A stretch of 44,022 nucleotides of DNA from Chloroflexota bacterium. Its GTDB lineage: Bacteria; Chloroflexota; UBA6077. The stretch is from assembly GCA_050942695.1 (NCBI GenBank), contig JBMNNU010000001.1:1-44022 (forward strand), read 5' to 3'. Both the position numbers and the translations under genes were made by a program. Within the stretch, counting starts at the first letter, position 1, and each line of letters begins with the position of its first letter. Positions 1 to 44,022 of this stretch are shown piece after piece. Below the pieces are notes generated by a model that was not told where the DNA came from, did not search any database, and saw only the letters and a list, made by a program, of their open reading frames with translations.

Positions 1-2041
1 TCAGGTAGCCGTCGGCAGTGACGGTCAGGGAGTAGGTGCCGGGCGGCAGCAGCAAGGTGTAGGCTCCGTCGGAGTTTGTCGTGCTCGAGTAGACGCCTGC
101 AGCTACCGTGGCTCCCCCATCGTTAGTCCTCGCTTGAAGGTCCACCACCCCGCTGACCCTGGGGAGGGCCGTAGGGGTAACGGTCGGTGTGGATGTCGAT
201 GTTGCTGTTGGAGTAGTAGTAGCCGTTGAAGTTGGAAGGGGTGTGTTTGTGGGCGTCGAGGTAGCGGCGGCGGCTCCCACTTCGAAGCCGTCGATAACCA
301 CATCGTGCCCGGCAGAGTTGGCATTCCGGAAGTCACTCACCTTCACCACAATCAGGTGCTCTCCCAGCGGAACGTTGAGTAGCACCCTCTCCCCCCATTG
401 GACACCATCGCTCCGGTAAAGGTCGATTTCGGGGCTCTGAACGTCGTCCAACCACACCTCGGCCACACCCTCGGCAGGCCCCTTCATAGTAACAAGCGTT
501 ATGCAAGACCCATGAAAGCGCAACCGGGCAGTTGCCCCTGGAGTCGAGGAACGATGGGCTGCTCCTCCCTCCGGTCCATCCCCCGCCCACTCTGCCCAGC
601 CGTCCGAGTATTGGATCATGGGATCCGAATCTTCATACCAGCCTGGACCCGCTACATCCAGGCTAGCGGTGGCGGTAGCGGTGGCCGTTGGAGTCTGAGT
701 CGGCGACGCGGTAGCGGTGAGTGTTGGGGTCTGGGTCGGTGAAGCTGTGGCGGTAAGGGTTGCAGTCGCGGTGAAGGTCGGTGTGGACGTCGGAGTCGCC
801 GAGGGGGTGTTAGTCGAGGTTGCAGTTGCCGTGCACGTTGGTGTCGAGGTAGGAAGGGCTGTTGCGGTGCTGGTGGGCTCAGGGGTGGCGGTGGCCGTGG
901 GTTGGGGCCAGCCTATGGTTGCAGTGTAGATGTCCCACACCCCGCTCCGTTTGTCTAACCACACTATACGGTCCCCGTGAATCCGCGGTTCCGATTGGTC
1001 CCCAGTCGCGGTACATATCGGAAACTCGACCTGTCTGGCGATGTCGTAGCCGTAGATGTCGTAACTGGATCCAGAGCGTTTATCCTGCCAGGCGACCAGG
1101 TCGCCGTGAATAGCCGGGGCACCCTTATCGCCCGGAGCGATGCATATCGGGAACTGAGAGCCGCCAGAGCGGTATCCCCATATTCCAGCGTCGGGGGACT
1201 GTATCTCATGCCACACCAGGGTCCAATTGTCGACATCTCCGGTGATCTGAGGATTGACCTGGCTGGTTGTGCCGGCGAATTTACCTGTATTAAAAAGCTC
1301 TTTCGCCTTCAACTGTCCGGCCTCCATGAAGAAGGAAAAAACCCGGACGTGTGTAAAGGTAGAGTTAATATCGGTGCTCTCGTGGAATGCGATAACCCCG
1401 TCGGCGAGGCTGGGGAAGCCCTGATTGCCGAGAGGGGATTGCGCCCCGAGCAATATCTCCTGCCCGCTTTGCAGCTCTTTCAGGCGAATTCGGTATGGAG
1501 CAGGGGTGCTGCGATCCTGGTAAGCTATAAAGGTGCTGTATACTGCAGCGGGCGCGTTAGGTACCTTACAGTTCGTCACCTGGGCAACCTCTGGGTCGCT
1601 GCCGCCAGTATACCGAAAGAGGGTCGGCTTGATGCTGCTGGGGACTCGCCAGTCGATCCAGACCACATCTGAACCGTGGACGCGAGGCATCATCTGGTTT
1701 TCGGTTTGCCCAGGCGATAGCGCCCAGGGAACTCTCGAATTGAGATCCACGGCGTAGACGGCGAAATCGCCCGATGCTCCCTGCTCGTGGTACACCACCA
1801 GATCCTGGTAGATGTCCGCTCCGCCCTTCAGATAACCGTTGCTCACCAGGGCGGATTCCACGATTTCAGGTAACCCTGCTGCGTGAGCTACCGGTGGCGT
1901 TTGGAAAATTGCCGAGGCAATTTGGAGGGGTGTTAGAGAGCTGCCTGCCTCAGGGCGTTCAGAAAAAACGCACAGCAGTAGTGACAATCCAGTTAGCAAT
2001 AGTAATGGCGAGTGAAAAAAAGCTGCTGAACGTCTACCCAC
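1..2041 (-). CDS. Secreted multidomain surface protein (signal peptide, TolB-like beta-propeller repeats, Thr/Pro linkers, lectin-like beta-sandwich, carboxypeptidase-regulatory-like domain); C-terminus runs off the window
   Basis: My own translation of the minus strand gives one open frame from GTG at 2041 to position 1, with an in-frame TAA just upstream at 2057-2059. The ORF track omits it because it has no stop inside the window. The N-terminus VGRRSAAFFHSPLLLLTGLSLLLCVF looks like a signal peptide. It has repeated HGD-VW-D-R-G-DIY motifs, two long T/P/A linkers, and ends ...NSDGAYTLLLPPGTYSLTVTADGYL. Confidence 0.7.
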   Translation of the reverse strand, partial: MGRRSAAFFHSPLLLLTGLSLLLCVFSERPEAGSSLTPLQIASAIFQTPPVAHAAGLPEIVESALVSNGYLKGGADIYQDLVVYHEQGASGDFAVYAVDLNSRVPWALSPGQTENQMMPRVHGSDVVWIDWRVPSSIKPTLFRYTGGSDPEVAQVTNCKVPNAPAAVYSTFIAYQDRSTPAPYRIRLKELQSGQEILLGAQSPLGNQGFPSLADGVIAFHESTDINSTFTHVRVFSFFMEAGQLKAKELFNTGKFAGTTSQVNPQITGDVDNWTLVWHEIQSPDAGIWGYRSGGSQFPICIAPGDKGAPAIHGDLVAWQDKRSGSSYDIYGYDIARQVEFPICTATGDQSEPRIHGDRIVWLDKRSGVWDIYTATIGWPQPTATATPEPTSTATALPTSTPTCTATATSTNTPSATPTSTPTFTATATLTATASPTQTPTLTATASPTQTPTATATATASLDVAGPGWYEDSDPMIQYSDGWAEWAGDGPEGGAAHRSSTPGATARLRFHGSCITLVTMKGPAEGVAEVWLDDVQSPEIDLYRSDGVQWGERVLLNVPLGEHLIVVKVSDFRNANSAGHDVVIDGFEVGAAAATSTPTNTPLPTSTATTTPTATSTSTPTVTPTALPRVSGVVDLQARTNDGGATVAAGVYSSTTNSDGAYTLLLPPGTYSLTVTADGYL

Positions 2042-2236
2042 AAAGCATCTCCCAGCTTAAGCTTAGATCTGGGAAACTAAGTTGATGTTCTCGTAGAATA
2101 AATCAGCTATCGTTACTTGTCAATCATCAATTAAAATCTACATGAGTCACGGCGAATCCTGCTCTTGATGCAGATTCTGCCCTGCGGTATACTTTTGGGA
2201 CCGCTTTATGGGTATATGGAAAGGGGGTTGGGCTCG

Positions 2237-3376
2237 GTGAAGCTCTCTTGCCTTCAGGAAAACCTAGATAAAGGACTCAACATAGTCAGCAAGGCCGTTC
2301 CGGCCAAAAGCACTCTTCCTGTCCTCGGCAACGTCCTGTTGTCAACCGATCAGGGTCGGTTAAAGCTGGCAGCCACTAATCTGGAGGTGGCCATAAGCTG
2401 CTGGATCGGGGCCAAGGTGGAGGAAGAGGGTTCAATTACCGTTCCCGCTAACCTCCTAACCGAATTCGTACGCTCCCTGCCCAACGATCGAATCGATCTA
2501 TCTCTGTCTCCGCGCACCAAGACGGTGAACCTGCGCTGCGCCCGTTTCGATGCCAATATCAGGGGGATCGATGCAGAGGAGTTCCCCACCCTGCCCAGTG
2601 CAGGCGATGGGTTCAAGATACTGGTGGATGGCGTGACACTCTCTGAAAGCATCTCCCAGGTGGTCTTCGCTGCCGCATCCGACGACAGCAGGCCGGTGCT
2701 AACTGGGGTACTGGTCACCTTCAAAGAAGACAAAATGACCATGGTGGCGGCCGACGGTTTCCGCATGGCTGTCAAAACGACACCTCTGGGCTCCGCAGTG
2801 GAGCAGGAGATCAGCGTCATCGTACCTGCCAGAGCCCTGCGAGAGTTAGGGCGGATCGTGTCCGACAGCGAGGAACAGATAGAGATCTCCGTCACTTCCA
2901 ACCGCAACCAGGCGCTCTTCCGTGCCGGGAACGTTGAGCTGGTCTCTCGGCTGATAGAGGGCCAGTTCCCCCCATATGAGCGGATCATCCCCCCGCCCAG
3001 CGAGAACAAGGTAGTGGTGAGCACAGGGGAGTTTCTGAACGCCAACCGCACAGCATCCATATTTGCCCGTGACAACTCCAACATCGTCCGGTTCCAGTTT
3101 ACCCCGGGGGAGGAGGGTCTCACGGCGGGCAAGATGATCATCACCGCCACCAGCGCCGAGGTGGGCGACAACGTGGGCGAGATCGACGCAGCCATCGTCG
3201 GACAGCCACCCCAGATAGCTTTCAACAGCCGCTACCTGGATGAGCTTTTGAGGGTGTTGGAGAAGAGTTCCCAGTTGGCGCTGGATATGAACTCTTCATC
3301 TAGCCCTGGGGTGTTCCGACCTGTGGGCGACGAGGGCTACCTGCACATCATTATGCCCATGCATACGAACAGGTAG
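2237..3376 (+). CDS. dnaN: DNA polymerase III beta subunit (sliding clamp)
   Basis: The 2165..3376 ORF reads VKLSCLQENLDKGLNIVSKAV..., with LPVLGNVLL and a C-terminal MPM motif typical of DnaN. I prefer the in-frame GTG at 2237, preceded by GGAAAGGGGG. The TTG at 2165 and ATG at 2216 are alternatives. Confidence 0.92.
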   Translation: MKLSCLQENLDKGLNIVSKAVPAKSTLPVLGNVLLSTDQGRLKLAATNLEVAISCWIGAKVEEEGSITVPANLLTEFVRSLPNDRIDLSLSPRTKTVNLRCARFDANIRGIDAEEFPTLPSAGDGFKILVDGVTLSESISQVVFAAASDDSRPVLTGVLVTFKEDKMTMVAADGFRMAVKTTPLGSAVEQEISVIVPARALRELGRIVSDSEEQIEISVTSNRNQALFRAGNVELVSRLIEGQFPPYERIIPPPSENKVVVSTGEFLNANRTASIFARDNSNIVRFQFTPGEEGLTAGKMIITATSAEVGDNVGEIDAAIVGQPPQIAFNSRYLDELLRVLEKSSQLALDMNSSSSPGVFRPVGDEGYLHIIMPMHTNR

Positions 3377-4737
3377 TGCATCTACAACAGTTGTCCCTCG
3401 CCAATTTCCGCAGCTACAGGCAGCTCGAACTCGAGTTGCCCTACCCCATTGTTCTGCTACAGGGCAACAACGGACAGGGAAAGAGCAACCTGCTGGAGGC
3501 TATCTATTTCCTAGCTACTACCCGGTCCCTACGGGCAGGATCCGATAGAGAGCTGATCAACTGGGAAGCCTTGGAAGAGCCCATCCCCTTTGCGCGCGTT
3601 GCCGGAACCGTTAAAAAGACCAGAGGCGACCTGAGGGTGGAGATAGCCATCCGCGCCGACCGGCCGGAACGAGCTGGCGCAGCCCTAGGGGAATCCGGCG
3701 GTACCCCGTTGGGGCTATCCAAGCGGATCAAGATCAACGGCGTAGCGAAGCGAGCGCTGGACCTCCTGGGGCAGATCAATGTAGTGATGTTCTCTCCACA
3801 GGACCTGGAACTGATCACCGGCTCCCCTTCCATCCGTCGCCGCTATCTCGATATCGTCAACTGCCAGGTAGACCGTCGCTACTGCCGGGCTTTGCAGCAG
3901 TACAACCGGGTGCTCCACCAGCGAAACCACCTTTTGAAGCAGATACGCGATGGCAAACAGCCCATTGAGACGCTGGAGTTCTGGAGCGAGGAGTTGGTGA
4001 AGAGTGGGGCTTACCTGCTTTGGCGACGGCTGGAGACAGTAGCGGCGCTAAACGGCTGGCTAGAGAGCTACTTCCACCGACTGACGAGAACGGGGAAGCG
4101 GCTGAAGATGGCCTATCGGTCTACAGTGGATGAGGCTGTGGGAGGCGCGGAGACGCGGGGACACAGGGACGGACCCCACCCCCTGCCCCTCCCCCACAGG
4201 GAGAGGGGAGATGAACTGGCTCTCACTGAGGGAGAGCGTGAACGTGCCAGAGGACACGTTCACGGGGGTGAGGGGGAACTAGCTCAGGACTCAGGACTCA
4301 GGACTCAGGACCCGCAACTCACCGAGACGGCCGAGCTGTTCAGGGAGGCTTTGCGCCGCTACCGCAGGCGAGAAACGCTCCAGGGGGTATCTCTATTGGG
4401 GCCCCACCGGGATGACCTAGTCTTCCGCGCAGATGGTATCGACATGAACGTCTACGGTTCTCGCGGCGAGCAGAGGGCGGTGGCGTTGGCGCTCAAGCTG
4501 TCGGAGGTGGAGTTCCTGCAAGAAGCCACTGGAGAATGGCCTCTCCTGCTGCTAGACGACGTGATGTCGGAGCTCGATCCCTCCCGCAGACTGCTGCTGC
4601 TGGAGACCATCGGCTCGTCGGGGCAAACCCTGATCACCACCACAGAGCTGGAGTCATTCTCACCGAAGTTCCTGGCTAGCGCTGCGCTTTTCGAAATCCA
4701 TCAGGGCACGGTGGTGCTAACGCGCAAACCTGCATAG
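3376..4737 (+). CDS. recF: DNA replication/repair protein RecF, carrying an ~57-codon low-complexity insertion
   Basis: N-terminus MHLQQLSLANFRSYRQLEL..GNNGQGKSNLLEAIYFL (Walker A), later GPHRDDL and LLLLDDVMSELD (Walker B). The GTG start shares one nucleotide with the dnaN stop (TAGTG). It is 453 aa, whereas RecF is usually about 360-370 aa. Confidence 0.9.
   Translation: MHLQQLSLANFRSYRQLELELPYPIVLLQGNNGQGKSNLLEAIYFLATTRSLRAGSDRELINWEALEEPIPFARVAGTVKKTRGDLRVEIAIRADRPERAGAALGESGGTPLGLSKRIKINGVAKRALDLLGQINVVMFSPQDLELITGSPSIRRRYLDIVNCQVDRRYCRALQQYNRVLHQRNHLLKQIRDGKQPIETLEFWSEELVKSGAYLLWRRLETVAALNGWLESYFHRLTRTGKRLKMAYRSTVDEAVGGAETRGHRDGPHPLPLPHRERGDELALTEGERERARGHVHGGEGELAQDSGLRTQDPQLTETAELFREALRRYRRRETLQGVSLLGPHRDDLVFRADGIDMNVYGSRGEQRAVALALKLSEVEFLQEATGEWPLLLLDDVMSELDPSRRLLLLETIGSSGQTLITTTELESFSPKFLASAALFEIHQGTVVLTRKPA
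4141..4311 (+). repeat. Composite repeat inside recF: CGGAGAC-like heptamers, 42-nt GC-hairpin core, 9-bp perfect hairpin, (CTCAGGA)x4
   Basis: Core 4171-4212 is ggaccccaccccctgcccctcccccacagggagaggggagat. Hairpin is gtgaacgtg(4238-4246)/cacgttcac(4255-4263). Four exact tandem CTCAGGA copies lie at 4283-4310. A 72-nt stretch matches the reverse complement of 29188-29259 at 66/72. Confidence 0.85.
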
Positions 4738-15204: not shown

Positions 15205-15247
15205 TGTAGCGCTACAATCCCCCCTTCCCTCCCTTTGGGAAGGGGGG
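15205..15247 (+). repeat. Two adjacent stem-loops after the second binding-protein gene (12-bp palindrome plus 11-bp GC hairpin)
   Basis: tgtagcgctaca at 15205-15216 is a perfect palindrome. cccccttccc-type arm 15219-15229 pairs with gggaagggggg 15237-15247 across a 7-nt loop. No T-run follows, so it is not a classical terminator. Confidence 0.55.
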
Positions 15248-15280
15248 AAGATGTTACCTTTACCCTGAGGGAGGTTGCTC

Positions 15281-27501: not shown

Positions 27502-30500
27502 CTATATTCTTGCTTCCTCACCTACTTTTACCCCAGTAGGCTCTACAGTCTTCGGCGTGCGCCGAAGACGCCGCCGGATCCATCCTCCGGTATCGTCTAT
27601 CAGCGAGTAGGCAACCGGCACCACTATCAGCGTCAGGATAGTGGATGTGATCACACCACCCACTACGGTCACGCCCATCGGTTGACGCAGCTCCGACCCC
27701 GCTCCAAATCCCACGGCTACGGGCATCATGCCGAAGATCATTGCAAATGTAGTCATCAGGATGGGTCGCAACCGTATCGGCCCTGCCTGCAGGATCGCAT
27801 CACGGGTGCTCATACCCCGCCTTTTTAGCTGGTTTATGAACTCGACCAGCAGGATGGAGTTCTTTGTCACGAGCCCCATCAGCAACAGCATCCCGATCAT
27901 CGCCATTGCGTCGAGGCTAATCCTACTTATCAGCAGCGCAAGCAGCGCCCCGATGATCGAGAATGGCAGCGCAAGCATGATGGTGAAGGGGTGCACAAGG
28001 CTCCCGAACTGAGAGGCCAGGATCATGTACATGAACAGCACCGATAGCACCAGGGCCAATGACAGAGAGCCGAAAGCCTCATCCATGTACTCAGTATCGC
28101 CACCGATCTTGACCATTACCCCCTCAGGCAACTGCATCGCGGCCACGGCCTCCTGGGCTTCCGCCAAGATCGGGCCGATGTCGTTACCCTGGTAGTTGGC
28201 CCCCACGATCACCTGCCGCATCCGGTTCTCCCGCTCGATCTGATGGGGCTCCGATGAGGGCGCCAGGCTGGCGACCGCCGAAAGAGGCATCAAGCTGCCC
28301 CTAGTGGAAGCAATGGGCAGCTTAAGGATGTTCTCTGCATGGTAGCGGTCCTCTTCGGCCAGCCGGACCATAATGTCCATGTCCTCTTCTTCTGCCATAT
28401 AGCTACCGGCCTGCTCACCGTTGACCAGTGTTCTTATGGTGGTGCCCACCTGCGCCGTGGACACTCCCAGGTCGGTCGCTCGGGCGCGGTTGAGAACGAT
28501 GATGCGGCCCGGCCGGCCGGGCCGGATGGAGCGATCGATATCCACGACACCCGACACCTTCGACAGGCGCTCCATCACTTCGATCGATACCTTGTCCAGT
28601 TGGTCGATGTCGTTGCCCTGCACCTTAAACTGGATTGGTTGGCTCATCAGAGCGGTCATGGCCGAACCAAGAGCACCCGCCGCCGCGGTCTCCTTGTTGA
28701 AGGTAACCTTGGTGCCGATCAGTTTGCCGTTCAACGCATCTCGCACTTTAGTAATCATCTGGTCGGTATGTCCCCGAGACTTGAGGATGACGCCCACCGA
28801 GGCGGAGTTGACCGCCTGTCCCGAAGAGCCAACAGTGGTGAAAATGTGGCTCACCATCGGATCGTTCCTCAGCAGCTCCTCCACCGTCCGAGCTACCTCG
28901 TCGGACTCCTCGAGCCGAGCCCCCGGTCTAAGCTCCATCATTACGGAAAACTCGCCCTGGTCTACCGCCTGCATGAATGCCTGATTCATCAGTGGGACCA
29001 TGGCCAGGCTGCCCAGCAAGGACAGGACACCCACCCCCACCACCACCTTCCTGTGGCTGAGAGACCAGCTTAGGAATCCACGGTAGATGGTGTAGATGGT
29101 GCCGAGTGTAGAGTGCTGAGTGCTGAGTCCTGCATCCTGTTTTGAGTGCTGTTCTGAGTGCTGGGTTCTGGGTTCTGGGTTCTGGGTATCTCCCCTCTCC
29201 CTGTGGGGGAGGGGTAGGGGGTGGGGTCCGTCTCCGCGTCTCCGTGTCTCCGCGCCTCCTGTTGCCTGTTGCCTACTACCCACTGCCTTCTTCTTGAATA
29301 AGTAGGCGGACAGCATCGGGGCGAGGGTGAAGGCCTCCACCAACGAGATCAACACTGCCGTAGCTATGGTGACGCCGAAATCTCGGAGGTAGACCCCCAT
29401 CATCCCGCCGGTGAAGGCGATAGGCAGGAAGACGGCTACGATAGTGGATGTGACCGCTAGTACTGCCAGCGCTATCTCCGCCGTCCCCCTTCCGGCCGCT
29501 ACTTTGGGCTCCTCCCCCCGCTCCATGTGTCGGAATATGTTCTCCCGGACCACGATGGCGTCGTCGATCAGCATGCCGATAGACATGGAGAGGGCCATCA
29601 TGGAGATCATGTTGAGCGAGATCCCCAGGGCGTGTAGCACAGCGAAGGTGCCCAGCACCACCACCGGCAGCCCTGCGATGGTAACCAAGGTGTTGCGCAG
29701 GTCGCGGAAGAACAGCAGCACCACGAGTGCCGCCAGGAGGCCGCCTAGCAGCAAAGCGGTCTGGACGTCACGTAACGCATCTCGGGTGAAGGTCGAACCG
29801 TCGTAGACGAAGCCAAAATTCAGATCAGGATACTCGCCCTGCAGCTTCGCCATCTCGGCTTTGGCAGATTCGGCCACCTTCACGGTGTTGGAGCCCGATT
29901 GCTTGTATAGCACTGCCACTACACTATCCTGGCCGTCCAAACGGGTAAGATGACGCACATCGGCGTGGCCTTTGGAAATAGAGGCTAACTCCTTCAGCTT
30001 GACCGTGCTCCCCTGTAGGGTGGGCACCGGGATTTCTCCAAGCTCTTCCAGAGACGTTACCTGGCCGGCTGTTCTCAGAAGCTCCTCGTTGCCGGCCTCG
30101 TAAATCCGGCCGGCTGGCAGGTCCAGGTTCTCGCCCCGAATCGCCTGAATCACCTGTTGTGGAGACACAGTGAACGCTTGAAGCTGAGCCAGAGACAGCT
30201 CGACGTGGACCTCCTTCACCAGTCCACCGTAGATCTCCACGAGGGCTATTCCATCCAGCCGTTCCATCCTCGTCTTGACCACGTCGTCTGCCAGGGTACG
30301 CAACTGCTCCCCATTCAAGCGGCCTGTCTTGTCAGATATGGCGAAAACACCGATGGGAAGGGCTGTCATGTCCATCTTCCCGATGACCGGCTCCTGGATG
30401 TCGGCTGGCAGGCTGTTGCGGATCAGGCCTATCCGGTCCCGAACATCGTCGGCCGCCGCATCGCCATCCATGTCCATGTCAAATTCCACAATCACCGTGG

Positions 30501-30855
30501 ATACACTGTCTGATGAGGTGGATCGGATCTTTTCCACCCCGTTCAGCGAGGCCATGGCATCCTCGATCGGCTTGGTCACCGACCGTTCGATCGTCTTGGG
30601 GTCCGCGCCCGGATACACCGTGCTCACCGCCACGATGGGCAAGGTAGTATCAGGCATCAGGTCTACGGCCATTCGACTGTATGACAGCCAACCAACCAAT
30701 ATGACAGCCGCCACCATCATCATTATGAAGACAGGCTGGCGGATGGAGAGGTCAGAAAGCCACATCTTCTGTGGGCCTTTGCTTAGGTTATCGTGAAGAT
30801 GGTCCAGGGCGGAGACGTCGTCGATTCCGTCGTTCCCCGGATCATTATCAGCCAT
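27502..30855 (-). CDS. RND-family efflux transporter permease (AcrB/AcrD/AcrF-like) carrying an in-frame repeat-derived insertion in the central loop
   Basis: LSIRQPVFIMMMVAAVIL.., 12-TM architecture with two large loops, 1117 aa. Strong RBS AAGGAGG before the ATG at 30855. Confidence 0.92.
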   Translation of the reverse strand: MADNDPGNDGIDDVSALDHLHDNLSKGPQKMWLSDLSIRQPVFIMMMVAAVILVGWLSYSRMAVDLMPDTTLPIVAVSTVYPGADPKTIERSVTKPIEDAMASLNGVEKIRSTSSDSVSTVIVEFDMDMDGDAAADDVRDRIGLIRNSLPADIQEPVIGKMDMTALPIGVFAISDKTGRLNGEQLRTLADDVVKTRMERLDGIALVEIYGGLVKEVHVELSLAQLQAFTVSPQQVIQAIRGENLDLPAGRIYEAGNEELLRTAGQVTSLEELGEIPVPTLQGSTVKLKELASISKGHADVRHLTRLDGQDSVVAVLYKQSGSNTVKVAESAKAEMAKLQGEYPDLNFGFVYDGSTFTRDALRDVQTALLLGGLLAALVVLLFFRDLRNTLVTIAGLPVVVLGTFAVLHALGISLNMISMMALSMSIGMLIDDAIVVRENIFRHMERGEEPKVAAGRGTAEIALAVLAVTSTIVAVFLPIAFTGGMMGVYLRDFGVTIATAVLISLVEAFTLAPMLSAYLFKKKAVGSRQQATGGAETRRRGDGPHPLPLPHRERGDTQNPEPRTQHSEQHSKQDAGLSTQHSTLGTIYTIYRGFLSWSLSHRKVVVGVGVLSLLGSLAMVPLMNQAFMQAVDQGEFSVMMELRPGARLEESDEVARTVEELLRNDPMVSHIFTTVGSSGQAVNSASVGVILKSRGHTDQMITKVRDALNGKLIGTKVTFNKETAAAGALGSAMTALMSQPIQFKVQGNDIDQLDKVSIEVMERLSKVSGVVDIDRSIRPGRPGRIIVLNRARATDLGVSTAQVGTTIRTLVNGEQAGSYMAEEEDMDIMVRLAEEDRYHAENILKLPIASTRGSLMPLSAVASLAPSSEPHQIERENRMRQVIVGANYQGNDIGPILAEAQEAVAAMQLPEGVMVKIGGDTEYMDEAFGSLSLALVLSVLFMYMILASQFGSLVHPFTIMLALPFSIIGALLALLISRISLDAMAMIGMLLLMGLVTKNSILLVEFINQLKRRGMSTRDAILQAGPIRLRPILMTTFAMIFGMMPVAVGFGAGSELRQPMGVTVVGGVITSTILTLIVVPVAYSLIDDTGGWIRRRLRRTPKTVEPTGVKVGEEARI
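29104..29273 (-). repeat. Composite repeat inside the RND gene: 12 heptamer-phase units, 42-nt GC-hairpin core, GTCTCCN heptamers, (TGTTGCC)x2
   Basis: 29104-29187 reads in 7-nt phase (gagtgct x2, tctgggt x3, etc). Core 29188-29229 matches the reverse complement of recF 4171-4212 at 41/42. 29230-29259 continues the match. tgttgcc x2 lies at 29260-29273. Confidence 0.85.
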
Positions 30856-35773: not shown

Positions 35774-37807
35774 CTACGTCCTCCTGATCTTATCTCCATT
35801 CTGGAGGTCGTTGTGGCCGGAGACGACCACCTCCTCGCCTGCCTGGAGCCCGTTGGCGATCTCCACCATCCCGTCCTGCCGCAGCCCAAGCTGGACGACT
35901 CGCTGCTCCACGACATCCTCCTTCACCACGAACAGCACGCTCTGCCCGGAGCGTGTGACCACCGCATCTTTGGGCACCAGCACCGCGTTCTCCTTTTCCT
36001 GGGTCAAGATGGTGACCTGTGCGAACATCCCCGCCCTGAGCTTGCCGCCGTGATCGTCAGGCCTTACCTTAACGGTAAAGGTCCGGCTTCTGGGATCCGC
36101 AGATGGGCCTATCACCGCCACCCTTGCCGGGAACACCGTCCCCGGATAGGCCGCCACGGTGATCTCCGCGCTCTGCCCCTCGCTGACCTGCCCTATCTGG
36201 CTCTCATCCACCCCCAGCACGAGTTCGACCTCACTCGAGATCACGCTGACTATCGGTGTTTGAGGGCTGACCAACGCCCCAACCGATAGGAACCTCTCCG
36301 AAACCACCCCGTCGATCGGGCTGATCACCTGCGTCTCAGCAAGCGCTATCTCGGCCATCTCCACCGCCGCCTGGGCCTGCTGCACCGAGGCTCCTGCCAT
36401 CTCCATATCGTGCTCCGTGTATGGGTTCATCGCAATCTCATATTGCTGCTCAGCCACCACCAGGGCGCTCTGCGCCTGAGCGATATCCTCTGCCCTTGCA
36501 GGTCTCTTCGCCATCTCCAACGCCTGCTCCGCCCGGATCACCGCGGCATCGGCTATCTTGATATCTTCCTCGGTCGGCCCGTCCTTCAACTGCTTCAACC
36601 GCGCCTCCGCGGCTGCGAGGTTGGCCTCAGCCTTCTGAAGATCCTCCTGCGTCGGGCCGCGCTTCATCTGGTCCACTCTGTGCCAGGCTGCCTCGTAAGA
36701 CGCCTTTGCTGAATCGTAGGCCGCCTGAGCAGCCGCCAGATCCGCTGGCAAGGGGTAGCTCTTCAGCAGCTCCAGCTTCTTGACGGCCGCCTCGTAGTTC
36801 TTGTACGCAGCATCGGCGCTCCGCTCAGCCTGTCCCGCGCTCGTAACGCCGGTAGTCGCCAGCTTCGTGATGTCGTTGTTGTCTGCTGCGAAATCCTTCC
36901 TATCGTCTGCAGCGTAAAGCGCAGCCCTGGCAGCCTCCACAGCAGCCTCGGCCGCCATGATGTCTGCTGGCTTGGGACCGGCTTGCACATCTGCCAGCCT
37001 CTCCTCCGCTGCCTTCATGTTGGCTCGGGCTGTGTCCAGAGCAGCCAACGCCTGCCCCCACTCCGTCTGAGTTGGCCACTGCTTGACCTGCTCCAGAGCG
37101 GCTTTCGCCTGGTCTACGGCTGCCTGGGCCTGCTGGATCTCCGTCTCCTTGGCCCCCTTCTTGACGGTCTCCGCCCTGGCTCTAGCCTCCTCCAGCGCGG
37201 CCTCCGCCGTGGCGATCTGCTCCTGCCTGCCGGTTTGCAGCGAAGCTAACTTGGCTCGAGCCGCATCTACGTTGGCCTTTGCCTGGGCTATCTGCTCTTC
37301 CCGCGACCCCGACTCCATGCTGGCCAGCTTGGCCCTCGCCGCCGCCAGATTGGCCTTAGCCTGGCTGAGCTGAGCCTGCAAGGTGGCCGAATCCAGCTCC
37401 GCTAGCACGTCACCCCTCTTTACCCTGCTGCCCACATCCACTGCAAGCTTCTCTATCCGCCCTGTGCTCTTGGGGAGCACGTTGACGCTGGAGACGGCAT
37501 TCACGTCCCCCGTGTAAGAGAGGTTGGCCGCGATCTTCCCCTCTTCGGCAACCACCGTTTTCACCGCCGACCCGCCAGGAGCCTGAGCGGCGGCGGCCGA
37601 AGGCTCCATCCCTCTGCCACCTAGAGCCAGTAATCCCGCTATAGCGAGCGCTACAGCCAATCCCCCGGCGCCCAGCCACCACCGCTTGGATACCGAAGGG
37701 GGGATGCGCTCCGCCAGCTTCCTTGGGATGCGGCTGCTCAGCATCTTCCCGAAACGCTCAGCCGGATTCACCACTTTGACGCCCCGTGCCAAAGCCCTGA
37801 ATTCCAT
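35774..37807 (-). CDS. Efflux periplasmic adaptor (HlyD/membrane-fusion protein) with extended coiled coil, 677 aa; paralog of 25613-27466
   Basis: Same architecture as the other adaptor: KRGDVLAELD ... SPIDGVV around about 330 aa of Ala-rich repeats, with C-terminal VTRSGQSVLFVVKEDVVEQRVVQLG. RBS GGGAGGACGAGG. Confidence 0.85.
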   Translation of the reverse strand: MEFRALARGVKVVNPAERFGKMLSSRIPRKLAERIPPSVSKRWWLGAGGLAVALAIAGLLALGGRGMEPSAAAAQAPGGSAVKTVVAEEGKIAANLSYTGDVNAVSSVNVLPKSTGRIEKLAVDVGSRVKRGDVLAELDSATLQAQLSQAKANLAAARAKLASMESGSREEQIAQAKANVDAARAKLASLQTGRQEQIATAEAALEEARARAETVKKGAKETEIQQAQAAVDQAKAALEQVKQWPTQTEWGQALAALDTARANMKAAEERLADVQAGPKPADIMAAEAAVEAARAALYAADDRKDFAADNNDITKLATTGVTSAGQAERSADAAYKNYEAAVKKLELLKSYPLPADLAAAQAAYDSAKASYEAAWHRVDQMKRGPTQEDLQKAEANLAAAEARLKQLKDGPTEEDIKIADAAVIRAEQALEMAKRPARAEDIAQAQSALVVAEQQYEIAMNPYTEHDMEMAGASVQQAQAAVEMAEIALAETQVISPIDGVVSERFLSVGALVSPQTPIVSVISSEVELVLGVDESQIGQVSEGQSAEITVAAYPGTVFPARVAVIGPSADPRSRTFTVKVRPDDHGGKLRAGMFAQVTILTQEKENAVLVPKDAVVTRSGQSVLFVVKEDVVEQRVVQLGLRQDGMVEIANGLQAGEEVVVSGHNDLQNGDKIRRT

Positions 37808-37847
37808 CCTCGTCCTCCCGACACAAAGCTGTCTGCTTTTTTTAGCA

Positions 37848-38169
37848 ATCAGCTTTCAGCAGTCAGCTATCAGCTTTCTCTATCAAAACAGGCGATTATG
37901 CATCCTCTACTATCTTAATAACACATTGCCAATTATCAACGCCCCTAGTTTCAGCTTTTTACCTATCCTGACATCTGGAACCTTCAAACCTTCATCCTGT
38001 CATTCTAAGCCCCTACGCTGTCATTCTGGGTGTCGAGCGAGGAATCTCCACGATCCCTCCCTACCTACATGGAGATGCTTCATTCCGTTCAGCATGACAC
38101 CTCGCCACTCGCTTTTCGCTACTCGCTCTCTCGCCCTGAAGGCTGAAAGCTGACGGCTGATAGCTAAAA
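37848..38169. repeat. MITE-like nest of repeats bounded by inverted TCAGC-heptamer arrays
   Basis: Left array is atcagct ttcagca gtcagct atcagct (37848-37875). Right array is gctgaaa gctgacg gctgata gctaaaa (38142-38169), its inverted counterpart. Inside are an AT-rich segment, an imperfect ~79-nt palindrome (38020-38098) and an ACTCGCT-type heptamer array (38107-38134). Confidence 0.7.
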
Positions 38170-38170
38170 G

Positions 38171-39091
38171 CTATCTACTCAGCACGCTGATGAAAACGTC
38201 CTCCAAAGACGGGCGTATCGCCTCGACCTTGCGAACCACCAGCCCGTGGCGCTCGAGGGACTCCCGCACCAGGGCCGGCCGGTCATCCGAGGGCTCCACC
38301 ACCAGGTGAAGCATACTGCCGTAGACTGCCACCTCTTTCACACCATCAACCGTAGGGAGCAGATCCAGAGCCGGCACCACCGGCTCGCACTCCACCTCCA
38401 GCAAGGAGCCGGGAACACCGGCTGCCTTGAGCGACTCCGGGCTCTCGCAGGCGACCAGCTTGCCCGCCAGCATCAGGCTCACCCTATGGGCGTGCTCGGC
38501 CTCGTCCATGTAGTGGGTGGTCACGAAGACCGTAACCCCGCCATCAGAGAGATCGTAGATCATATCCCAGACGCGGCGCCGCGACACGGGGTCCACGCCT
38601 GCGGTGGGCTCGTCCAGGAACAGAATCGGCGGGCTGTGGACTATCGAGCAGGCCAGGGCCAGCCGCTGCCGCCATCCGCCGGAAAGGTTAGCCGCGAGCT
38701 CGTCGCCCCGCCCCTCCAGCCCCGCCATGGCGATCAGCTCGTCTATCCGGGAGCGCTGCTTCCCCTGCGGCACCTGATACACGCCCGCGTAAAACTCCAG
38801 ATTCTCACGAGCCGTAAGCTCCTCGTAGAGAGAGAAGCGCTGGGACATGTAGCCGATATGCTCCTTCACCCGATCGCTCTCCTCGCGGATATCGAATCCC
38901 GCAACCTTTCCCGTGCCGGATGTGGGGGTGATGATTCCGCACAGCATCCGGATGGTTGTGGTCTTTCCGCAGCCGTTGGGGCCGAGGAAGGCGAAGATCT
39001 CTCCCCGGCCTACCTGGAAGGAGACGCCATCCACTGCCGTGAAGTCGCCGAACTTTTTCGTTAAGTTGAGTGCTTCTACAGTGTATTGCAT
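38171..39091 (-). CDS. ABC transporter ATP-binding protein (ABC-2/YbhF-like drug-export type)
   Basis: LNLTKKFGDFTAVDGVSFQVGRGEIFAFLGPNGCGKTTTIRML, signature LSGGWRQRLALA, Walker B ILFLDEPTAGVDP. Confidence 0.9.
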   Translation of the reverse strand: MQYTVEALNLTKKFGDFTAVDGVSFQVGRGEIFAFLGPNGCGKTTTIRMLCGIITPTSGTGKVAGFDIREESDRVKEHIGYMSQRFSLYEELTARENLEFYAGVYQVPQGKQRSRIDELIAMAGLEGRGDELAANLSGGWRQRLALACSIVHSPPILFLDEPTAGVDPVSRRRVWDMIYDLSDGGVTVFVTTHYMDEAEHAHRVSLMLAGKLVACESPESLKAAGVPGSLLEVECEPVVPALDLLPTVDGVKEVAVYGSMLHLVVEPSDDRPALVRESLERHGLVVRKVEAIRPSLEDVFISVLSR

Positions 39092-43968: not shown

Positions 43969-44022
43969 GGTTCTGAGTGCTGGGTTCTGAGTTCTGGGAA
44001 TTCTTTTCTCAGAACTCAGAAC
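43969..44022. repeat. Inverted heptamer arrays (GGTTCTG/AGTGCTG family), truncated by the window edge
   Basis: ggttctg agtgctg ggttctg agttctg (43969-43996), an 11-13 nt loop, then (ct)cagaac tcagaac (44008/44010-44022), the inverted counterpart. The heptamers are the same as in the RND insertion. Confidence 0.7.

Follow-up and report, generated by a model that had tools for sequence, protein, structure and literature searches.

Why should one short DNA element be read in the same orientation and in the same reading frame inside two unrelated genes? The question is raised by a complete 44,022-nt contig (JBMNNU010000001.1) of a Chloroflexota metagenome-assembled genome (MAG), hereafter the window, in which recF (3376..4737, plus strand, 453 aa) and the gene for an AcrB/MdtB-type RND permease (27502..30855, minus strand, 1117 aa) each carry an in-frame insert built around a nearly identical 42-nt core. 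A preliminary description of this DNA had offered two explanations, namely selection against copies that contain stop codons and an element that is adapted to being translated. With a probability of about 0.75, we read the core as a tolerated passenger repeat that is kept by a selection filter in permissive sites and not as a module adapted to one frame. What we found fits selection against copies that contain stops or break the frame, and adaptation to translation is unsupported.

The 42-mer GGACCCCACCCCCTRCCCCTCCCCCACAGGGAGAGGGGAGAT occurs twice in the window, at 4171-4212 on the plus strand, where the C-rich strand of recF is coding, and at 29188-29229 on the minus strand in the pump gene. 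The two occurrences are identical at 41 of 42 positions, and the variable base (GGACCCCACCCCCT[G/A]CCCCTCCCCCACAGGGAGAGGGGAGAT) is the synonymous third base of a Leu codon (CTG/CTA). No match to the 42-mer was found in 100 dinucleotide-preserving shuffles of the window. The 30 nt upstream agree at 25 of 30 positions, which brings the total to 66 of 72, and from both intact open reading frames (ORFs) the peptide GGAETR..DGPHPLPLPHRERGD is obtained in identical orientation and frame, the core itself being translated as GPHPLPLPHRERGD. Apart from the shuffles, all of this had been reported in the preliminary description and was confirmed, as were the heptamer units said to flank the core, which were recovered by Tandem Repeats Finder, the program with which tandem arrays were called. 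In the pump gene these are heptamer-phase arrays at 29099..29187 (minus strand; coding GAACCCA, CAGCACT, CAGAACA and others, read as TQNPEPRTQHSEQHSKQDAGLSTQHST) and 2.4 units of GGCAACA / CCTGTTG at 29258..29274 (minus strand), on the N-terminal edge of the insert. Two points had been missed: the class to which the core belongs, discussed below, and the fact that an octamer array makes up part of the shared 72 nt. This array runs as GGAGGCGC GGAGACGC GGGGACAC AGGGAC in recF (4141..4170, plus strand, read as GGAETRGHRD) and as about 3.9 coding units of GGAGRCRC in the pump gene (29229..29259, minus strand, read as GGAETRRRGD).

The G-rich strand of the window unit has three arms, one of pyrimidines, one of purines and another that is again rich in G, and reads CCCCTCTCCC-TGTG-GGGGAGGGG-TA-GGGGGTGGGG. 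For the pump copy, the plus strand gives the Y-arm CCCCTCTCCC (29192-29201), the loop TGT(G), the R-arm GGGGGAGGGG (29205-29214), the loop TA (29215-29216) and the third arm GGGGGTGGGG (29217-29226). Holder et al. 2015 (NAR, PMC4666352) defined G/C-rich class II triplex motifs (TMs) by the pattern CCCTCNCCC-N3-6-GGGNGAGGG-N3-GGGNGAGGG, counted 3610 copies in 262 proteobacterial genomes, found G/C-rich motifs to be abundant in cyanobacteria and Thermus, and distinguished two types of second loop, TTA (A) and CCG (B), with frequent inverted A+B pairs. A strict regular expression for this BoxC/PIT/TMECO class had no match in the window. It fails by a single base because the third arm reads GGGGGTGGGG instead of GGGTGAGGG. 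Both window cores do fit CCCTCNCCC-N3-6-GGGNGAGGG-N2-4-GGGNGAGGG if one substitution is allowed (9-nt arms, the substitution in the third arm and a second loop of 2-3 nt), and this relaxed pattern had no match in 50 shuffles. Judged by its arms and loops, the core is a copy of the BoxC/PIT/TMECO class of G/C-rich intrastrand-triplex or hairpin repeats, a dispersed DNA repeat already known as a class, of which it is a new Chloroflexota, intragenic member.

Pairing the arms by hand suggests a hairpin of about 9 base pairs plus one T-G pair, and about 9 G.G-C / T.A-T triads with a 1-nt shift. A canonical G-quadruplex (G4) pattern, G4-5 N1-2 x4, is present in both window copies, which makes a G4 an alternative fold. 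We also considered a structured RNA element. An Rfam scan of the whole window at gathering thresholds and an E-value scan of 28950-29450 returned noise only and no family match, and this candidate is unsupported because neither insert folds significantly better than its shuffles (z = +1.38 and -1.74).

The pump insert spans about residues 525-582 (nt 29110-29283), between transmembrane helix 6 (TM6) and the segment that precedes TM7. Against MdtB/AcrB structures, residues 34-529 and 587-1099 of the pump were aligned, and directly after TM6 there are about 58 residues versus about 12 in MdtB, so that the location in the TM6-TM7 linker, as originally proposed, is confirmed. In the comparison with orthologues that had been recommended, the linker position proved to be empty in 56 of the pump's 59 other closest homologues. 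Octamers and a remnant of a G-arm, GGGGAGAGG, are left in the closest orthologue (P0002/L099, 73% at the amino-acid level), with the C-arms absent, and the single unit in the pump of P0059/L100, CCCTCACCCC-CGG-CCCCTCTCCC-GCTTCGC-GGGAGAGGGG, is independent. A low-complexity insert of about 170 aa occupies the same TM6-TM7 linker in P0056. In another phylum, an unrelated AcrB-type pump of a Planctomycetota MAG (L088, JAJYGU010000275.1, about nt 1340-1650) carries four TM units in exactly the same post-TM6 linker, two in G and two in C orientation, which are translated as SPLPVGEGLGVRAS..SPLPAGQGSGVRAN..LSQRERGPG..LSPRERGP. The RND TM6-TM7 linker is a hot spot of insertion that has been struck in two phyla. 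Several Chloroflexota pump orthologues (among P0022, P0023, P0050, P0056, P0062 and others) have a C-terminal extension of the SH3-like family PF08239.

The recF insert covers about residues 255-312 (nt 4138-4311), and the ORF aligns to solved RecF structures on either side of these roughly 58 extra residues. In an AlphaFold model based on 50 homologues (overall pLDDT 88.4, pTM 0.86), the insert is a low-confidence coil loop (residues ~256-312, pLDDT 42-50) between flanks above 92, and it is predicted to be disordered. Beyond the core lies a second, degenerate TM in inverted, G-strand orientation (4219..4277, plus strand; GCTCTC-ACTGAG-GGAGAGC ... GGGGGTGAGGGGG, with helices from the minimum-free-energy fold), so the C-oriented TM and the degenerate G-oriented TM form an inverted, REPIN-like pair. 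The degenerate TM is itself interrupted: a 28-nt hairpin with a perfect stem, CGTGAACGTG-ccagagga-CACGTTCACG (4237-4264), parts its second arm from its third and is an insertion inside an insertion. The insert ends in a perfect heptamer array, (CTCAGGA)x4.1 (4283..4311, plus strand, 100% identity, read as QDSGLRTQD), shared with the recF orthologue L101. RecF lengths in the clade vary from 402 to 473 aa and the site is hypervariable: it is empty in L102, holds heptamers and one octamer unit only in L101 (the closest on its list, 80% at the amino-acid level), with both insert edges in common with the window, holds one canonical unit in L103, and in L048, a relative from UBA6077, holds three units in the opposite orientation and in frame (SPLPVGEGPGVGS...). 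The recF loop is a hot spot of insertion with turnover among relatives. The expectation that the host site would tolerate insertions is supported at both the pump linker and the RecF loop.

We examined the distribution of the repeat with an exact 23-mer of the core, CCCCTCCCCCACAGGGAGAGGGG, which was found at no fewer than 98 sites in species-representative genomes of several phyla. Among the matches listed, carriers include Gemmataceae (dozens of copies per MAG), Anaerolineae, Ktedonobacterales, Chloroflexia, Chthonomonadaceae, Gemmatimonas, Competibacter, Rhodoferax, Metapseudomonas and Cardiobacterium, and near-identical core sequence spans Proteobacteria, Chloroflexota, Planctomycetota, Armatimonadota and Gemmatimonadota. 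Alignment of 106 listed copies showed that about 40 nt are conserved as a unit, (G)ACCCC[A/T]CCCCC-N3-4-CCCCTCCCCC-ACAG-GGAGAGGGG, in which (G)ACCCC[A/T]CCCCC is the conserved third arm, and that inverted pairs are common. The TTA and CCG types of second loop and the inverted pairs known from E. coli were seen in Planctomycetota copies, and TAAC/CCGG loop variants with inverted pairs in Gemmataceae, L088, L108 and L109. Copies of the 23-mer also sit in non-coding DNA, in either orientation. A lineage-specific metagenome scan with GACGGACCCCACCCCC-N2-3-CCCCTCCCCCAC found nothing, a relaxed fixed-gap metagenome pattern found two loci only, and BLAST against E. coli genomes returned nothing, probably owing to the low-complexity filter. 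The repeat is rare on viral contigs, where four contigs represent two distinct loci. Three IMG/VR contigs (L104-L106) sample one viral or proviral locus with two tandem C-oriented TM units, from which it follows that the repeat is able to travel on virus-classified DNA. Within the window, an intergenic pyrimidine/purine hairpin between two genes (15218-15251; TCCCCCCTTCCC-TCCCTTT-GGGAAGGGGGGA) has no clear third arm and resembles the 'ccccttcccc..ggggaagggg' variants that, in copies from Gemmatimonas and Fimbriiglobus, form pairs with the core.

Is the shared frame of the two window copies a sign of adaptation? The 42-nt core is free of stops in six of six frames in the recF copy and in five of six in the pump copy, which has a TAG in loop 2. 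The core is almost without stops because it is made of C-runs and G-runs. In the 170-nt composite of the pump gene, the three forward frames are open and the three reverse frames are closed because the heptamers carry TGA on the other strand, and the orientation is therefore forced. Given this, the frame shared by the two copies has a chance of about 1/3.

We surveyed intragenic copies in other genomes by searching for spanning ORFs with a coding-like pattern of GC3 (G+C at third codon positions) and checking the candidates against Pfam. Pfam-supported genes hold about 19 of about 104 listed copies; in most of the 19, Pfam domains lie on both sides of the repeat or span it, and in L055, L065, L072 and L080 on one side only. 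Long spanning ORFs at L025, L043, L045, L051, L056 and L064 (Gemmataceae, Fimbriiglobus and Gemmatimonas) were left out of the count for want of Pfam support. Frame G1, read as SPLPVGEG, is used in RecF (L048), MutS (L038, L077 and L087), the RND pump (L088), two kinases (L008 and L013), a hydantoinase (L036), a subtilase (L090), a NACHT-FGE protein (L006) and an Eco57I-like protein (L080). Frame C2 (PSPTGRG) is used in the MutL linker of Cardiobacterium hominis NCTC10426 (L062), a polyprenyl synthase (L020) and a protease (L024), frame C1 (PPPQGEG) in an Lhr helicase (L066) and an acyltransferase-ligase (L027), and frame C0 (PLPHRERG) in the two window copies. The unit lies in domain II of both L077 and L087 MutS, at positions that differ by about 50 nt, and an rnpA gene found in the metagenome scan (L109) holds an in-frame inverted pair. 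The repeat is thus translated in at least four combinations of orientation and frame, and the window's C0 is not the common frame elsewhere, which is G1. Adaptation to one frame, one of the two possibilities originally raised, is unsupported because the core is poor in stops, several frames and orientations are used and the recF site of L048 is inverted.

In our reading of these observations, a TM core is embedded in slippage-prone octamer (GGAGACRC) and heptamer (CAGNACY) tandem repeats, and the composite low-complexity inserts occupy two hypervariable, permissive positions, the post-TM6 linker of the pump and the disordered loop of RecF. The octamer array may have grown by slippage from the GGAGAC that flanks the element, a hexamer also found ahead of CCCC[A/T]CCCCC in many Gemmataceae copies. 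The repeat would land, or be copied, in many places, and coding copies would survive where the local structure tolerates a disordered loop rich in Pro, Gly, Arg and Glu, where the total length keeps the frame and where no stop arises, a condition that the composition would meet almost automatically. The insert would then be neutral for the function of the protein. As to the route by which copies arise, the inverted pairs suggest mobilisation in trans through single-stranded DNA hairpins, similar to that of REPINs by REP-associated tyrosine transposases (RAYTs). Alternatively, the repeat might spread by template switching or by copying-in during repair at forks stalled by its structure. Slippage would then account for the flanking tandem repeats as by-products.

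Several points weigh against a passenger repeat. Use of the frames is uneven, with G1 in about 11 of 18 intragenic copies. Repair genes make up six of the 19 Pfam-supported intragenic copies (recF, three mutS, mutL and lhr), an excess with a nominal binomial P of 2.4e-4 at a 5% background with gene length uncontrolled, which is further biased in that Pfam verification favours long multidomain proteins and a single 23-mer variant was sampled. This share hints at non-random targeting or retention. Intragenic GTAG/CGTC repetitive extragenic palindromic (REP) elements likewise tend to occur in uvrA, uvrD, polA and recBCD, and for these Di Nocera et al. 2013 (PMC3733652) weigh neutral insertion into loops against mutator effects. 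No RAYT or other transposase was seen among about 37 Pfam-scanned ORFs of the 44-kb window, and no target-site duplication could be defined, empty and filled sites being too diverged; how the core is copied is a proposal only. The two copies are identical at 41 of 42 positions although the L099 remnants suggest that the pump insert is old, and the core is near-identical across phyla, both of which point to homogenisation or to a constraint on the sequence beyond neutrality. Finally, the survey of other genomes covers one exact 23-mer variant and is not a census of this organism's genome.

As a rival reading, the insert might be kept by selection at the level of nucleic acid, either as a polymerase-stalling triplex, G4 or hairpin, or as a set of non-triplet repeats that would act as slippage on/off switches and make RecF (recombination or mutator state) and efflux phase-variable. 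We regard this as unlikely. The DNA identity exceeds what the peptide needs, given that the only difference is synonymous, arms and loops are conserved across phyla, and the G4 pattern is found in both copies. Perfect 7-nt repeats lie inside coding sequence, both sites turn over rapidly among relatives, and the enrichment in repair genes has its parallel in the REPs of Di Nocera et al. 2013. For the TM class itself, Holder et al. 2015 report a block to DNA polymerase at PIT elements in vitro and a link of TM loci to local genomic instability in E. coli, but also that TMs have neither promoter nor terminator activity and no in vivo effect on polymerase in E. coli, and that the triplex was formed by an oligonucleotide in vitro with none detected in vivo. 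Moreover, the inserts do not fold better than their shuffles as RNA, only four to five repeat units are present, which predicts low rates of slippage, and most orthologues lack the element altogether.

A wider proposal would make the core an ancient repeat, near-constant from E. coli to Chloroflexota and Planctomycetota, which would imply an unrecognised and widely conserved machinery that copies or homogenises it. Such a repeat would enter, or be retained, preferentially in repair genes (recF, mutS, mutL and lhr) and transporter linkers and, together with the 7- and 8-nt satellites, constitute a hypervariable or phase-variable mutator and efflux switch. We consider this quite improbable.

It is very unlikely that the element has been domesticated for translation as a useful peptide module, such as a flexible spacer or an RGD-containing motif, with a preferred frame. 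The window copies share orientation and frame, RGD is encoded twice, intragenic copies elsewhere are biased to G1, and in-frame translated palindromic repeats, the Rickettsia palindromic elements (RPEs), are an already known phenomenon (MITE review, PMC10969869) and offer a precedent. However, the frame preferred elsewhere is not that of the window, the L048 recF site is in the opposite orientation, disorder is predicted for the RecF insert, most orthologues are without the element, and with its orientation forced by heptamer stops the coincidence of frame is a matter of about one chance in three.

Hardly credible, and already largely refuted, is an artefact through mis-assembly of the MAG at the repeat or a shared protein domain: although this MAG contig ends in heptamer repeats and contains low-complexity repeats, both genes are in frame with conserved sequence on either side, inserts occupy the same sites in independent assemblies (L048, L099, L101 and L103), in-frame copies are found in isolate or complete genomes (C. 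hominis NCTC10426 mutL and Ktedonobacterales CP126532), the precomputed Pfam annotation of the pump lists no domain but ACR_tran (the insert peptide was not scanned separately), and a shared domain, which the preliminary description had itself named as a possible source of the similarity, is ruled out because the repeat is also present outside coding DNA and in either orientation.

Tandem heptamer arrays are intergenic at 37840-38165 and 43969-44022 and also lie within coding sequences (CDSs), and the CAGNACY heptamers form a satellite of their own in this genome, one that is intergenic as well. Between an HlyD-family gene (35774-37807) and an ABC ATPase gene (38171-39091) lies an intergenic element of about 330 bp (37841-38170), the ends of which are inverted heptamer arrays (AGCTATC/AGCTTTC versus GCTGATA/GCTGAAA) that enclose a long hairpin, tgtcattctgggtgtcgagcgaggaatctcc...ggagatgcttcattccgttcagcatgaca. 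The element looks like a MITE, a miniature transposable element with inverted repeats, and we take its gtcattctg...cagaatgac hairpin to resemble a repeat that is widespread in other phyla. At 43969-44022, the end of the contig is an inverted arrangement of the heptamers that flank the pump core (GGTTCTGAGTGCTG ... CTCAGAACTCAGAAC). This heptamer satellite is probably where the assembly broke, and the genome is therefore likely to hold many more copies. At the other end, upstream of dnaN (window 1-2164), there is no dnaA; the ORFs at 398-742, 977-1672 and 1774-2085 have no Pfam match, a 36-nt tandem repeat lies at 672-754, and no cluster of DnaA boxes was found near dnaN.

Three aspects of the passenger repeat appear not to have been described before: that TM-type repeats are translated inside genes of several phyla, that they recur at one and the same pump linker in two of them and that they are associated with 7- and 8-nt satellites. 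The share of repair genes, six of the 19 in-gene copies, is possibly new as well. In MAG proteins, many of the odd stretches rich in Pro and Gly (SPLPVGEGPGVRS, PSPTGRGE, PLPHRERG) are a single DNA repeat in translated form; not being domains, they are unfit as signals of homology. The TM6-TM7 linker of RND pumps, the loop in RecF and domain II of MutS, which have been struck in more than one lineage, offer natural positions for engineered insertions. The bias to repair genes, if real, would bear on the role and spread of widespread repeats that form non-B DNA.

How does the window element compare with known systems? With the BoxC/PIT/TMECO repeats it shares the order of a C-rich arm, a loop of 3-6 nt, a G-rich arm, a loop of 2-3 nt and another G-rich arm that is interrupted by T/A. 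Its first loop, TGTG, is also that of the E. coli copy TMECO no. 20, and TTA/CCG second loops and inverted pairs occur in relatives of the window copies. Like that class it is multi-copy, dispersed and associated with local instability, with two copies only in the 44-kb window. It differs in that its G/C runs are of 4-5 instead of 3, its third arm is GGGGGTGGGG and not GGGTGAGGG, loop 2 is TA or CA, and octamer and heptamer tandem repeats flank it. It also differs in location: TMECO is "always located intergenically" in E. coli (PMC4666352), whereas both window copies are intragenic and translated, and about one fifth of the listed copies in other sampled phyla lie within Pfam-supported CDSs.

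Similar to RPEs, the window element is a palindromic repeat that is found in frame within unrelated housekeeping ORFs and adds a peptide at tolerated surface positions. RPEs, however, measure about 100-150 bp, are restricted to Rickettsia and have one conserved peptide and frame per family, whereas the window element measures about 40 nt, occurs in many phyla and has more than one frame and orientation of reading. Intragenic REPs and the REPIN-RAYT system (PMC3733652; Bertels & Rainey 2011, PMC3116915) are also short G/C-rich hairpins, often in inverted doublets, that are occasionally located in ORFs, notably of replication and repair genes, and have been read as neutral loop insertions. In contrast, the window element lacks a consistent GTAG or CGTC tag and has an extra third arm, no RAYT is found nearby in the window, and near-identity across phyla contrasts with lineage-specific REPs. 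The tag GTAG is present only in the pump copy, by way of its TA loop; in its place stand GCAG in the recF copy and TTAG or CCGG in relatives. Membership among the GTAG-REPs is ruled out because the tag differs between copies. Of the hallmarks of a MITE, terminal inverted repeats plus a target-site duplication, inverted pairs were observed, and empty and filled sites are too diverged for a duplication to be defined. The heptamer arrays recall the heptanucleotide short tandemly repeated repetitive (STRR) sequences of cyanobacteria and simple-sequence contingency loci, in which a unit that is not a multiple of three could shift the frame by slippage, although the window units are of other sequence and number only 2-5 copies. 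A contingency locus would also vary in copy number within the population; in the window a non-triplet repeat, (CTCAGGA)x4.1, does lie inside a CDS, and the content of the arrays differs among orthologues.

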